Of a stretch of 38,598 nt of DNA, positions 19,358-24,070 are shown one piece after another. Numbering within the stretch: position 1 is the stretch's first letter; every line of letters starts with the position of its first letter. Below the pieces are notes generated by a model. The model worked only from the letters and a program-made list of their open reading frames with translations. It did no database searches and was not told the origin of the DNA. The stretch covers positions 1 through 38,598 of the forward strand of contig BTQX01000002.1 in NCBI GenBank assembly GCA_036986095.1. The letters are read 5' to 3'. The DNA is from Gammaproteobacteria bacterium (GTDB lineage: Bacteria; Pseudomonadota; Gammaproteobacteria; BMS3Bbin11). A program made the translations under genes and the position numbers.

Positions 19358-21238
19358 TTGAGTTTGAAAATAAACGCCAGGTACACATTGCCTGCCCTTC
19401 TTGTTTTTGTCTTCATCATCTATTTTCCCGGCTTAAATGGCCCATTTCTGCTTGATGACTACTCAAACTTCGTCAATGTACAGACGACTGATGCGTCCTG
19501 GGAGACTCTGAAATCATCCGCATTAGGAGATGGAACAACAGCCCCATACCGGCCACTATCCCGCGCCACACTGATCTTAAATAATTTTTTCTCCGGCACT
19601 GAAAATGCCTATTATCATAAGCTGACCAATCTGCTTATCCACCTGCTTATCGGTGTGACTCTCTTCATCTTCTGCTCCCTTTGCTTAAATGCCGTCGATA
19701 ACAGACGATCATCGATACCGATTGCATTGTTGGTGACTGCTCTCTGGCTACTGCATCCTTTACAGGTCAGTACTGTCATGTATGTAGTACAGCGCATGGC
19801 ACAACTTTCTTCCCTGTTCACCTTACTGGCGTTAATCGTCTACGTCCGGGCAAGACTTGAAGAGAAAAATGGTAAAAATCTTACATTGCTGTTTCCCATT
19901 ATCGGCATCTCGATTTTTTCCACGCTTGCTTTATTGAGCAAGGAAAGTGCTGCCCTGATACCACTCTACATCCTCACTATTGAATACCTGTTATTTAATT
20001 TCAACACCCATAACACCCGAAACAGGCGGCGACTTTGGGTGTTGCAATTCCTCTTTGTATTTCTCCCCCTCATCACCGGTCTTATTTATTTTGCCGGCCA
20101 CTATGAGCAAATACTCAATTATGCATCGCGTAACTTTACTCTCAGTGAAAGGCTACTGACCCAGTCAGTTGCGGTCATCTTTTATCTGGGACAGATAGTG
20201 TTCCCCAGACTATCAGAAATGGGCCTGTTCCTTGATGACTTCACCATCTATCGGTCACTCGATTTGATGGTCATCTTCAGTATCCTGTCACTCTTAGCAC
20301 TGGTTGTCCTTGCAATATATACACGCAATAAATCCCCGTTATTTGCCTTCGGTATCACCTGGTTCCTTGTATCACACCTTCTCGAATCAACAGTACTGCC
20401 ACTGGAAATGGTCTTTGAACACCGCAACTACCTGGCACTGTTCGGGCCAGTATTATCGATTGTTGTCGGATTCAATCTTTTGGCAGATAGAACCCATTTA
20501 TCTGGAACTATTACAAAAATTATTGCCTTTAGCATTCTTATCATTTTCTCATTTCAGACTTTTTACCGAACAATATCATGGAGCAGCGAAGAGAATTTTG
20601 CCGCAACACATTTAATCAATCACCCTAAGTCAGAACGCACGCACAACCTCCTTGCACAGATTGCTTTTAAGCAGGGCAAGCGAGAACTTGCTTTGTCAGA
20701 ACTTGAGCAGGTCTCCCGCATTAACCCCGCAGATACTTCGTACCATGTGCTACGTGTACTGGCATGGTGCCAGGATACCGTCTCTGAAAAACAAATTGAG
20801 GATGCCATAAAGACTACAGCAACTATCCAGCATAGAAAATCAGCACGTAGTGTACTCTATGCAGTAAGAAACATTGAATATTTACATTCAAATGGCCAGT
20901 GTCCGGCAGTATCTAGAGAAAACCTGCTCCGCCTCACCACATCGATGGTAAATAACCCTGTTATTCGTAACGAAGCACTAAAATATCATATTCACGCGCG
21001 CGCATTAGCTGCTAACAATCAATTGAATGAGGCTAAAACTTTCTATTTAAAAGCATGGCGATTAAAACAGCAGAATTTACAACCTGTTTTTGAACTAATA
21101 CAGCTTTTACGCGACAATATGAGAGCCGAGGAATCCTGTAAAGTTATTGAAGAACTTTTGCGTTCACCGATCAGCTACGATAATAACAATACCATTAAAA
21201 TAGATTCCCTGAGCGCATCCTGCCCGAGGGCTAACTAG
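19358..21238 (+). CDS. TMTC-like membrane glycosyltransferase: N-terminal GT-C type polytopic domain plus C-terminal TPR domain (paralogue A)
   Basis: 626 aa. TM1 is followed by FPGLNGPFLLDDYSNF (acidic DD first-loop motif). There are about 10 TM segments and a conserved MVFEHRNYLALFGP motif. The C-terminal ~200 aa are helical TPR-like repeats (LAQIAFKQGKRELALSELEQVSRINPAD). TTG start as listed; the exact start is uncertain. Confidence 0.65.
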   Translation: MSLKINARYTLPALLVFVFIIYFPGLNGPFLLDDYSNFVNVQTTDASWETLKSSALGDGTTAPYRPLSRATLILNNFFSGTENAYYHKLTNLLIHLLIGVTLFIFCSLCLNAVDNRRSSIPIALLVTALWLLHPLQVSTVMYVVQRMAQLSSLFTLLALIVYVRARLEEKNGKNLTLLFPIIGISIFSTLALLSKESAALIPLYILTIEYLLFNFNTHNTRNRRRLWVLQFLFVFLPLITGLIYFAGHYEQILNYASRNFTLSERLLTQSVAVIFYLGQIVFPRLSEMGLFLDDFTIYRSLDLMVIFSILSLLALVVLAIYTRNKSPLFAFGITWFLVSHLLESTVLPLEMVFEHRNYLALFGPVLSIVVGFNLLADRTHLSGTITKIIAFSILIIFSFQTFYRTISWSSEENFAATHLINHPKSERTHNLLAQIAFKQGKRELALSELEQVSRINPADTSYHVLRVLAWCQDTVSEKQIEDAIKTTATIQHRKSARSVLYAVRNIEYLHSNGQCPAVSRENLLRLTTSMVNNPVIRNEALKYHIHARALAANNQLNEAKTFYLKAWRLKQQNLQPVFELIQLLRDNMRAEESCKVIEELLRSPISYDNNNTIKIDSLSASCPRAN

Positions 21239-21239
21239 A

Positions 21240-23180: not shown

Positions 23181-23188
23181 TCAGGATT

Positions 23189-24070
23189 TTGCCAGTGCAA
23201 GAGAAACATTCACTAAGCATCGTATTACCTGCATATAATGAGTCTGCCGGTCTTTCACAACTATTGCCAGAACTCAAGGCGTCATACCCAGAGGTAGAAA
23301 TACTTGTCATAAATGATGGCTCTACAGATGACACACCTGCTGTATGCAAACAAAACGGTGTAAAAATCATCTCCTACCCATACTCCCAGGGAAACGGTGC
23401 TGCTATCAAGGCAGGCTGCAGAAATGCCAGTGGTGACATCGTGATTTTTATGGACGCAGATGGCCAGCATTCTGTCGATGATATTCCACACCTGCTTAAT
23501 AAGATGGAACAGGGCTATGATATGGTTGTTGGAGCGAGACAGGTTAACACACACAGCTCCATTCTAAAAAGGTTCGCAAATGCTTTCTTCAACCGATTTG
23601 CATCCCTGATGACAGGCCACAACATCATGGATCTTACCTCCGGTTTCAGGGCAGTAAGAAAGGACGTCTTCAGTAAATTCCTCTACCTGATGCCTAACGG
23701 TTTCTCTTACCCAACAACCAGTACCATGGCTTTTTTTCGTTCAGGCCACCCCGTTGGCTACATTTCTGTACGTGCAGGGACAAGGGCTACAGGAACGAGC
23801 AGTAACATAAAAATACTTAAGGATGGCTTGAGGTTTCTGATAATCATTTTAAAGATTGGAGCGCTTTTTTCGCCTATGAGGCTTTTTCTGCCGATTAGCG
23901 CAGCACTATTCCTGACTGGTCTTGTCTATTACGGTTATACATATATCACTGCAAATCGCTTCACTAACATGAGCGCCCTGCTGTTCATTTCCTCATTGAT
24001 GGTTTTTCTAATCGGTATTTTATCCGAACAGATATCTTCACTACATTACCGGGATTCATCCGACCAGTAA
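23189..24070 (+). CDS. GT2 polyprenyl-phosphate glycosyltransferase (GtrB/ArnC/DPM1 class)
   Basis: SIVLPAYNES, VINDGSTDDT and the DxD motif FMDADGQH. Two C-terminal TM helices (FLPISAALFLTGLVYYGY and LLFISSLMVFLIGILSEQI) are the hallmark of lipid-phosphate monosaccharide synthases. TTG (23189) or GTG (23195) start. Confidence 0.75.
   Translation: MPVQEKHSLSIVLPAYNESAGLSQLLPELKASYPEVEILVINDGSTDDTPAVCKQNGVKIISYPYSQGNGAAIKAGCRNASGDIVIFMDADGQHSVDDIPHLLNKMEQGYDMVVGARQVNTHSSILKRFANAFFNRFASLMTGHNIMDLTSGFRAVRKDVFSKFLYLMPNGFSYPTTSTMAFFRSGHPVGYISVRAGTRATGTSSNIKILKDGLRFLIIILKIGALFSPMRLFLPISAALFLTGLVYYGYTYITANRFTNMSALLFISSLMVFLIGILSEQISSLHYRDSSDQ

Follow-up and report, generated by a model that had tools for sequence, protein, structure and literature searches.

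A candidate pilin O-glycosylation module of GT-C/TPR proteins and a lipid-phosphate sugar synthase encoded downstream of pilA

Organization of the pilA downstream region

The first 38,598 nt of contig BTQX01000002.1 (forward strand; Gammaproteobacteria bacterium, assembly GCA_036986095.1), hereafter referred to as the window, carry a type IV pilus locus in which the pilin genes are followed, on the same strand, by two genes for large membrane proteins (A and B) and a third one for a family 2 glycosyltransferase (GT2). A preliminary description of this DNA had pointed to the three genes as a candidate pilin glycosylation module. Profile searches, structure prediction, and a survey of related loci lead us to propose that A, B, and GT2 probably make up an O-glycosylation module dedicated to pilins and dependent on a lipid-monophosphate-linked sugar, i.e., a variant, resembling TfpW and the TMTC proteins, of the general scheme in which a GT2 enzyme supplies a GT-C transferase.

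The features of the locus are compiled in Table 1. The gene layout noted initially, with two paralogous proteins of ~630 aa encoded ~160 nt past pilA and its terminator, holds: A and B comprise 626 and 646 aa, respectively, share 32% identity over their full length (E=9e-76), and begin 161 nt downstream of the pilin 2 gene. The A and B genes are separated by 1 nt, and 8 nt lie between B and the GT2 gene. Pilins 1 and 2 are 41% identical, and each carries the Pfam domains N_methyl and Pilin; the open reading frame (ORF) of pilin 1 is listed from 17748, with the Met at 17808 as its likely start. Pilin 2 is the presumed acceptor of the sugar. A terminator that separates pilA from accessory genes has been described as a general feature (PMC11841053), and the strong one identified downstream of pilin 2 probably attenuates read-through into the accessory genes. 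Since pilB marks the end of the locus, positions 19358 to 35346 as a whole amount to an insertion that separates pilA from pilB.

Table 1. Coordinates of the features of the pilus locus within the window
Feature	Position	Strand	Evidence or remark
pilS	14438-16099	+	Translation; two-component regulator of pilin expression
pilR	about 16102-17475	+	Translation; two-component regulator of pilin expression
Type IVa pilin 1	17808..18245	+	N_methyl 1.2e-10, Pilin 9.6e-09
Type IVa pilin 2	18681..19196	+	Pilin 1.7e-13, N_methyl 2.4e-10; directly 5' of the transferase genes
Intrinsic terminator after pilin 2	19262-19291 (19262..19301 as annotated)	+	Stem of 12 bp, 7 of them GC, followed by a T-run
Protein A gene	19358-21238	+	626 aa
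Protein A, predicted membrane GT-C catalytic domain	19358..20587	+	Residues ~1-410; D33 D34, R65, K195 E196, D293, E354-Y358
Protein A, predicted C-terminal periplasmic TPR-like solenoid	20588..21238	+	Weak Pfam, profile and Foldseek TPR matches
Protein B gene	21240-23180	+	646 aa; full-length paralogue of A, from another clade
GT2 gene	23189-24070	+	293 aa
Glycan island (~12 kb)	24083-35346		Between GT2 and pilB
pilB, pilus extension ATPase	36545..38257	+	T2SSE 4e-148, MshEN 9e-20

Predicted fold and topology of proteins A and B

Pfam returned nothing on the membrane domain of A and B, which spans the ~410 N-terminal residues (N-domain). In particular, PMT_2 and DUF1736 (PF08409) gave no match with A or B at E≤0.1, nor with 43 N-domains of the family at E≤1. 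NCBIfam provided no match for B and weak matches for A in its tetratricopeptide repeat (TPR) region alone (PrsT, 1.6e-07; BcsC, 0.03). A hidden Markov model (HMM) of the N-domain retrieved noise only from the PDB sequences, and hhalign comparison of the N-domain with the window's two other GT-C proteins, both of the PMT_2 type, yielded probabilities below 1%. Neither Pfam nor NCBIfam holds a model for the GT-C membrane domain of the family. Public databases name its members "hypothetical protein" or "TPR repeat protein", and JGI annotates several of them as "protein O-mannosyl-transferase".

AlphaFold (AF2) models were predicted with high confidence both for the full-length protein (pLDDT of 91.8 with a 57-sequence alignment) and for the N-domain (92.6). 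The full-length model matched TPR proteins only (OGT and consensus TPR among them) in Foldseek; as these had swamped the search, it was rerun with the N-domain alone. The top 14 matches were then all GT-C proteins, namely STT3 (from the yeast and human oligosaccharyltransferase complexes), AglB, PglB, PIGU, ArnT, and Pmt1/Pmt2, with probabilities of 0.96 to 1.0 (1.0 for STT3, AglB, and PglB, at TMq values of 0.47 to 0.53). All non-GT-C matches had probabilities of 0.2 or less (0.20 for WaaL). According to these models, the membrane domain of A and B is a predicted GT-C fold to which a TPR solenoid is attached. The comparison with GT-C transferases of the PMT/TMTC type, as put forward in the preliminary description, thus finds support in the predicted architecture and topology and, in part, in the motifs (see below), but not in the Pfam families PMT_2 and DUF1736.

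Hydropathy profiles of A and B revealed ~10 to 11 hydrophobic segments within residues 1-405. From the model, 11 transmembrane (TM) segments were assigned in all (residues 7-27, 84-113, 119-141, 143-170, 178-194, 196-213, 220-252, 303-322, 327-339, 362-379, and 383-407), with the helix at 262-281 counted as juxtamembrane. The topology that we infer from model helices and hydropathy would locate every invariant polar cluster in a periplasmic loop, and the parity of the TM segments, together with a Cys pair, would place the TPR domain in the periplasm as well. The two residues of this pair in A, C471 (20768-20770) and C515 (20900-20902), are invariant or nearly so in 57 homologues, which fits a periplasmic location, and probably form a disulfide that stabilizes the solenoid. 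The C-terminal domain itself, described at the outset as soluble and TPR-like, yielded weak TPR/Sel1 matches in Pfam, below cut-off, but matched TPR proteins, OGT and consensus TPR among them, strongly in both profile and fold searches.

Invariant residues and comparison with TMTC motifs

Proteins of this type are abundant. A search of 1.84 billion representatives with the N-domain retrieved 28,359 of them at E≤1e-3, 12,877 at E≤1e-10, and 4,503 at E≤1e-30; the latter figure refers to clusters at 50% identity, and such a number argues against A and B being a product of chance. Almost all of the family members listed come from metagenome-assembled genomes or metagenomes, and cultured carriers are few; Plasticicumulans lactativorans DSM 25287 (L015), Thiohalocapsa sp. 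ML1 (L028), and Ca. Berkiella aquae belong to the latter. No relatives were found on plasmids (by tblastn) or in viral contigs. B scored 590 bits against the family HMM and keeps all of the invariant columns.

Alignment of 57 homologues (28 to 83% identity) uncovered a set of invariant residues consisting of D33, D34, R65, K88, H95, W130, P134, Q145, R146, K195, E196, P283, D293, E343, S344, E350, and E354-H-R-N-Y358. This set includes both of the motifs that had been singled out beforehand. The acidic motif of the first loop, right after TM1 (FPGLNGPFLLDDYSNF and YPGLTGGYVLDDNANI, found in the A/B translations), had been named in advance as one of the points at which the proposed module could fail, and its residues D33 and D34 are invariant. 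Likewise, FEHRNYL(A/P) is present in A and B, and its E354-Y358 portion is strictly kept in the homologues. A second alignment, made of 43 N-domains, recovered nearly the same invariants, with D293 and E350 slipping to at least 90% conservation.

TMTC enzymes consist of an 11-TM GT-C domain followed by TPRs and are characterized by seven motifs, i.e., M1 (DD, loop 1), M2 (SHKSYRP), M3 (RxD), M4 (KE(T/Q)xxT, loop 3), M5 (DW, loop 4), M6 (PxxP), and M7 (ERxxY, loop 5) (PMC7801869). Comparison at the level of motifs, which involved no alignment to TMTC sequences, identified exact counterparts of M1 (DD) and M4 (KE) in the family, along with R65-P for M2, R146 only for M3, D293 without the accompanying W for M5, and P327 only for M6; M7 reads E354-H-R356-N-Y358. 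The motifs appear in the same order, and their spacing from DD agrees within about 5 to 40 residues (family versus TMTC: R-P, +32 versus +41; R, +112 versus +115; KE, +162 versus +167; D, +260 versus +278; E of the last motif, +321 versus +351).

This conservation bears on the possibility that A and B are noncatalytic pilus assembly or chaperone factors, in which a GT-C-like scaffold carries a TPR domain that handles pilins. There is precedent for such a role in TfpX/Y/Z, which are linked to pilA and act in assembly rather than modification (PMC11841053), and the lack of a sequence-level match to an active GT-C family would also be compatible with it. However, the residues that remain invariant across 57 sequences (DD, KE, D, and E-x-R-x-Y) are what one would look for in a GT-C enzyme that is catalytically active and binds lipid phosphate, and a dedicated lipid-sugar synthase is conserved alongside the proteins. 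A noncatalytic function thus appears highly improbable.

GT2 and the probable supply of the sugar donor

The product of the third gene was initially placed in the GtrB/ArnC/DPM1 class of glycosyltransferases because of its DxD motif and two C-terminal TM helices, both of which are readily discernible (D89-A-D91 and hydrophobic helices at ~214-250 and ~257-285). The protein matches PF00535 with an E value of 3.3e-34. Its best NCBIfam matches comprise AglJ (8e-37, residues 10-287), which is a haloarchaeal dolichyl-phosphate hexose transferase, as well as Dol-P-hexose transferase, ArnC, PgfS, and PpgS; all of these scores fall far below the equivalog cut-offs. Its best matches among PDB sequences are ArnC (2e-18), the Pyrococcus DPMS (7e-15), and GtrB (1e-14), consistent with the initial placement. 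Enzymes of the ArnC, DPMS, GtrB, and AglJ types load one sugar onto polyprenyl phosphate. As judged by homology, GT2 is a predicted polyprenyl-phosphate monosaccharide synthase of the ArnC/DPMS/GtrB class.

In 11 related loci, the GT2 gene is directly followed by one encoding an LPG_synthase_TM protein (PF03706, the MprF flippase-domain family), which is a candidate flippase for the lipid-phosphate sugar. Loci of the Berkiella/Legionellales type have this gene between GT2 and pilB (e.g., L002 10719-11798). Further sugar genes recur near the module, i.e., those for a DegT-type aminotransferase (13 loci), an NAD-dependent dehydratase/epimerase (12 loci), and a GT4 (23 loci), with L001 12296-13420 and L026 9676-10758 as examples. 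These neighbors recall the ArnB/ArnA/ArnC logic and suggest that the transferred sugar may vary by lineage, with amino or deoxy sugars as candidates.

In the window, the glycan island adjoins GT2. Its minus strand encodes a GT4, a GT2, an FkbM methyltransferase, a GDP-mannose-4,6-dehydratase-like protein, and another GT4, and its plus strand an RmlC-like epimerase, an epimerase/reductase, a sugar C-methyltransferase, and a GT1-like protein, followed by a Wzx-type flippase and an HTH regulator. Close relatives have only its first two genes (GT4 and GT2) in common with the window and differ in the rest; L081, one of the two closest long contigs, has an integrase/transposase at the island position. 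The island could specify a methylated deoxy-sugar glycan destined for pilin or for lipopolysaccharide (LPS).

The presence of this island raises the question of whether A and B might instead be O-oligosaccharyltransferases, functionally similar to TfpO, PglL, or PglB, that transfer en bloc an oligosaccharide assembled on undecaprenyl pyrophosphate (Und-PP) by the island enzymes and flipped by Wzx. The best fold matches of the N-domain are indeed oligosaccharyltransferases (STT3, AglB, and PglB), TfpW itself has been proposed in the literature to be one, and GT4 genes, as mentioned above, recur in related loci. Nonetheless, all GT-C enzymes of this class share one core, and their ranking at TM scores of about 0.5 does not discriminate among them. 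The conserved motifs of A and B resemble those of the monosaccharide transferases TMTC and ArnT. Furthermore, the partner conserved across loci is the monophosphate-sugar synthase (50 of 69; see below) and not the island, whose content changes even between close relatives and which is absent in L013, a locus with no other sugar gene. The scanned ORFs of the window did not include an initiating phosphoglycosyltransferase. We accordingly give little credence to en bloc transfer and favor the monosaccharide-based module.

Conservation of the gene neighborhood

The genomic context of A was surveyed in one genome per GTDB species, which rendered 574 relatives; the best 80 loci (about 29 to 40% identity) were analyzed, with their ORFs clustered. 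Counts are given for the 69 assessable loci, i.e., those with enough flanking sequence upstream. The association of homologues with pilin genes that had been anticipated was evident in 58 of them, from both Gamma- and Betaproteobacteria, in which the gene next upstream, in the same orientation, encodes a pilin. Several of the misses are artifacts of ORF selection, since a prepilin-motif scan still finds a pilin ORF there. Prepilin genes, by a rough estimate, number only a handful among the thousands of genes of a bacterium, so adjacency to a pilin gene at such a frequency cannot be due to chance. An orthologue of the window GT2 is encoded immediately downstream in 50 of the 69 loci. The remaining recurrent neighbors, PilB, PilC, PilD, PilS, PilR, and CoaE, define the canonical pilA locus (PilS and PilR families, 23 loci each). 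In L013, the gene order is pilA-GTC-pilB-pilC-pilD-coaE-zapD, and the two closest long contigs, L081 and L082 (82% and 68% identity, respectively), maintain the arrangement pilSR-pilin(s)-GTC-GTC-GT2.

These counts also serve to weigh the idea that the acceptor is something other than pilin (LPS/O-antigen, another periplasmic protein, or a polysaccharide) and that the pilA locus merely acts as an insertion hotspot. In favor of this idea, the pilA-pilB interval of the window harbors a large, variable glycan island, one relative has a transposase there, and some family members, such as those of L020, L051, and L075, are not beside pilins; besides, most of the characterized bacterial three-component systems with a GT2 and a GT-C modify glycans. 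What this explanation does not readily accommodate is same-strand adjacency to pilin genes in 58 of 69 loci irrespective of what else is nearby, including L013, which lacks any other glycan gene. The architecture of A and B is that of the two known types of protein-directed GT-C enzymes with TPRs, TfpW and TMTC, and TPR domains are protein-binding modules. A nonpilin acceptor is thus unlikely, if not negligibly so, and pilins remain the more probable substrates. When aligned, 70 pilins from related loci looked like typical type IVa pilins, in which Ser and Thr make up ~20% of the residues and no sequon for an acceptor site is obviously shared.

Origin and possible roles of the two transferases

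Of 81 loci, 12 contain tandem GT-C genes, as pairs in 10 cases and as triplets in 2. The preliminary description had considered that the duplicated transferases might be specialized for different pilins, sites, or successive sugars. The locus counts speak against one transferase per pilin as a general rule: upstream pilins were scored in 11 tandem loci, of which 8 have one pilin gene, 2 have two, and 1 has none; conversely, in 6 loci, two or three pilins go with just one GT-C gene. Local tandem duplication is also rejected as the origin of the A/B pair, because the two proteins belong to different clades of the family. In a neighbor-joining tree, A groups with single-copy enzymes of Gammaproteobacteria (Pseudohongiellaceae and Berkiella-type), and B falls in a largely betaproteobacterial clade (Gallionella, Polaromonas, and Sulfurirhabdus-type). 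The pair thus appears to consist of two different complete enzymes that were brought together. Rather than serving one pilin each, A and B most likely differ in the site, the linkage, or the order of the sugars that they transfer, or else act as a heterodimer.

Comparison with known glycosylation systems

The closest described counterpart of A and B is TfpW of Pseudomonas aeruginosa (Pa5196/PA7), a GT-C protein of 646 aa encoded directly after pilA, which has 11 TM segments, a DDX motif in loop 1, and a C-terminal TPR domain (10.1101/2020.04.19.049825). TfpW is needed for the modification of pilin with D-arabinofuranose (D-Araf), a function that is lost upon mutation of DDX, and its homologues are encoded beside pilA in Azotobacter, Acinetobacter, Teredinibacter, P. 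indica, and Kingella (10.1101/2020.04.19.049825). The preliminary description cited TfpW as a GT-C enzyme without noting that it combines this domain with TPRs in the same way. In light of these data, the qualifier "undescribed" that it gave to the window module was too strong. What was already known is a GT-C/TPR protein encoded after pilA. No description of its conserved coupling to a polyprenyl-phosphate sugar synthase in a pilA-GT-C/TPR-GT2 triad, or of the scale of the family, was found in the literature searched.

By its published description, TfpW resembles A and B in its location on the same strand after pilA, its size (646 versus 626/646 aa), and, as predicted for A and B, the GT-C assignment, a cytoplasmic N terminus, ~11 TM segments, and a large periplasmic TPR domain. 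The DD(X) motif is essential in loop 1 of TfpW and DD is invariant here, and the accessory genes are separated from pilA by a terminator in both cases. The difference lies in the donor: TfpW relies on a separate D-Araf pathway (PPPRS, DprE1/E2, and a GtrA-like protein) and has no adjoining GT2, whereas a GT2 is the conserved neighbor of the proteins described here. No D-Araf genes (PPPRS/UbiA-like, DprE1, or DprE2) were found among the window ORFs scanned, nor were D-Araf or TfpX-like genes found at those GT2-less loci that were inspected. Homologue searches with A from the window, the Cellvibrionaceae protein of L066, and the Pseudomonadales protein of L075 recovered no protein from Pseudomonas, Teredinibacter, Acinetobacter, Azotobacter, or Kingella among the 120 matches listed for each; those listed were environmental relatives.

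With eukaryotic TMTC1-4/TMEM260, A and B are predicted to share the succession of an 11-TM GT-C domain and noncytoplasmic TPRs, together with the order and similar spacing of conserved residues. As inferred here, they would also share the use of a monosaccharide that a GT2 of the DPMS type has attached to a lipid monophosphate. They differ from TMTC proteins in that DUF1736 and PMT_2 do not match, M3, M5, and M6 are kept only in part, and M7 reads EHRNY instead of ERxxY. Moreover, A and B are bacterial and would act in the periplasm, presumably on pilin, while the acceptors of TMTC enzymes are cadherins. TMTC enzymes are linked to human disease; the PDB fold search produced no TMTC match.

The logic whereby a GT2 forms an undecaprenyl phosphate (Und-P)-linked sugar that is used by a GT-C enzyme also underlies GtrABC, ArnC/ArnEF/ArnT, CsbB/GtcA/YfhO, and the streptococcal GtrB plus PgtC2 or Pgf systems. 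GtrABC and the pentofuranose three-component systems follow the scheme of a GT2, a flippase, and a GT-C, and the streptococcal GtrB and GT-C PgtC2 bring about O-glucosylation of Ser/Thr-rich protein regions. In contrast to the three-component systems, the window operon has no GtrA/ArnEF-type flippase, its GT-C proteins have a TPR domain, and the target would be the product of the adjoining substrate gene.

TfpO/PilO, PglL, TfpM, and PglS also have pilin as their acceptor, and TfpO and TfpM are encoded directly after the pilin gene. However, these enzymes are of the Wzy_C/O-antigen ligase type and transfer Und-PP-linked oligosaccharides en bloc, whereas A and B lack Wzy_C (Pfam) and have another predicted fold and a TPR domain. 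Enzymes of the GT41 family are soluble, cytoplasmic, and nucleotide-sugar dependent. The cyanobacterial Ogt (Synpcc7942_0051) is a TPR glycosyltransferase whose gene lies near those for PilA and without which pilin is not glycosylated, as proposed here for A and B, but it contains two GT41 domains with N-terminal TPRs, unlike the GT-C domain with C-terminal TPRs of the latter (PMC9306852).

Proposed mechanism and implications

In the mechanism that we envisage, GT2 would sit on the cytoplasmic face of the membrane, anchored by its C-terminal helical hairpin, and would transfer a sugar from its nucleotide-activated form to Und-P. The lipid-linked sugar would then be flipped to the periplasmic leaflet, where A and B, as 11-TM GT-C enzymes, may transfer it to Ser/Thr residues of pilin prior to pilus assembly. 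The site for acceptor, metal, and phosphate is predicted to be formed by DD in loop 1, H133-P134 and Q145-R146 in loop 2, KE in loop 3, D293 in loop 4, and EHRNY in loop 5. The periplasmic TPR solenoid would dock pilin while it is anchored in the inner membrane. Read-through of the terminator would hold expression of the accessory genes well below that of pilin, as for other pilin accessory genes (PMC11841053), and, by analogy with TfpW and TfpO, the sugars may mask the pilus surface, e.g., against pilus-specific phages.

Several observations weigh against this proposal. Sequence comparisons (Pfam, PDB, and hhalign) did not link the N-domain significantly to any characterized GT-C family, and the GT-C assignment comes from a predicted structure with modest Foldseek E values (2e-3 to 0.1). 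The YX6PFX7P motif of periplasmic loop 4 of TfpW was present in none of 393 family sequences; Y276-x6-P283 is invariant, with no F after P283 and the next Pro 13 (not 9) residues further on. The genes of the window operon include none for a flippase of the GtrA, GtcA, ArnE/F, or LPG_synthase_TM type, and the adjoining island, with its Wzx, might provide a different donor. GT2 is missing from the immediate downstream position in 19 of the 69 assessable loci, and L020, L051, and L075 have neither a pilin nor a GT2 gene as a neighbor. The enzymes of these three loci may have a different acceptor; their neighbors include an ABC-F ATPase, an amine oxidase, and an AraC regulator, and L020 and L075 form a clade of their own.

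A broader, more tentative proposal, to which we assign somewhat less than an even chance, is that the triad represents a third class of pilin glycosylation systems, widespread and so far uncharacterized, a bacterial counterpart of TMTC that has a lipid-sugar synthase of its own and is distinct from both the Wzy_C enzymes and the D-Araf-transferring TfpW. Among uncultured Gamma- and Betaproteobacteria, no other pilin accessory module might then be as common. Where two or three tandem copies from different clades are present, they might build hetero-oligosaccharides stepwise in the periplasm or form heterodimers like those of Pmt1/Pmt2.

Pilin glycosylation alters the surface chemistry of the pilus and protects Pseudomonas against pilus-specific phages. 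If our proposal is true, most of the pilin-linked glycosylation in environmental Gamma- and Betaproteobacteria would proceed via GT-C/TPR proteins and their own lipid-phosphate sugar synthase and not via PglL/TfpO. TfpW would be set in a wider frame as an instance of the same architecture with a different donor supply. The locus would also offer a compact bacterial model of TPR-guided protein O-glycosylation by GT-C enzymes, with substrate, transferase, and donor synthase encoded in a row, and new enzymes for periplasmic protein glyco-engineering.

Other features of the window

The genes syntenic to pilS and pilR in L082 encode proteins with 6TM_PilS/HisKA/HATPase_c and Response_reg/Sigma54_activat/HTH_8 domains, respectively. 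Scans for sigma-54 promoter patterns, tRNAs, and Rfam families yielded nothing close to the pilin genes. The spacer between the latter (18246-18680) is unusually long (435 nt) and has neither an Rfam match nor a strict match to a sigma-54 promoter; its sole terminator-like signal is a weak hairpin at 18395-18408.

Upstream of the pilus locus lie another GT2 gene and two more that code for GT-C enzymes of the PMT_2/ArnT type (6016-7605, plus strand; 7627-8463, minus strand; and 12355-13884, minus strand), which brings the number of GT-C enzymes encoded in the 38.6-kb window to four. This additional GT2 is distantly related to that of the pilin locus (81 bits). The gene at 12355-13884 (509 aa) lies beside one for a UDP-GlcNAc 2-epimerase and is kept just upstream of pilS in L081 and L082.

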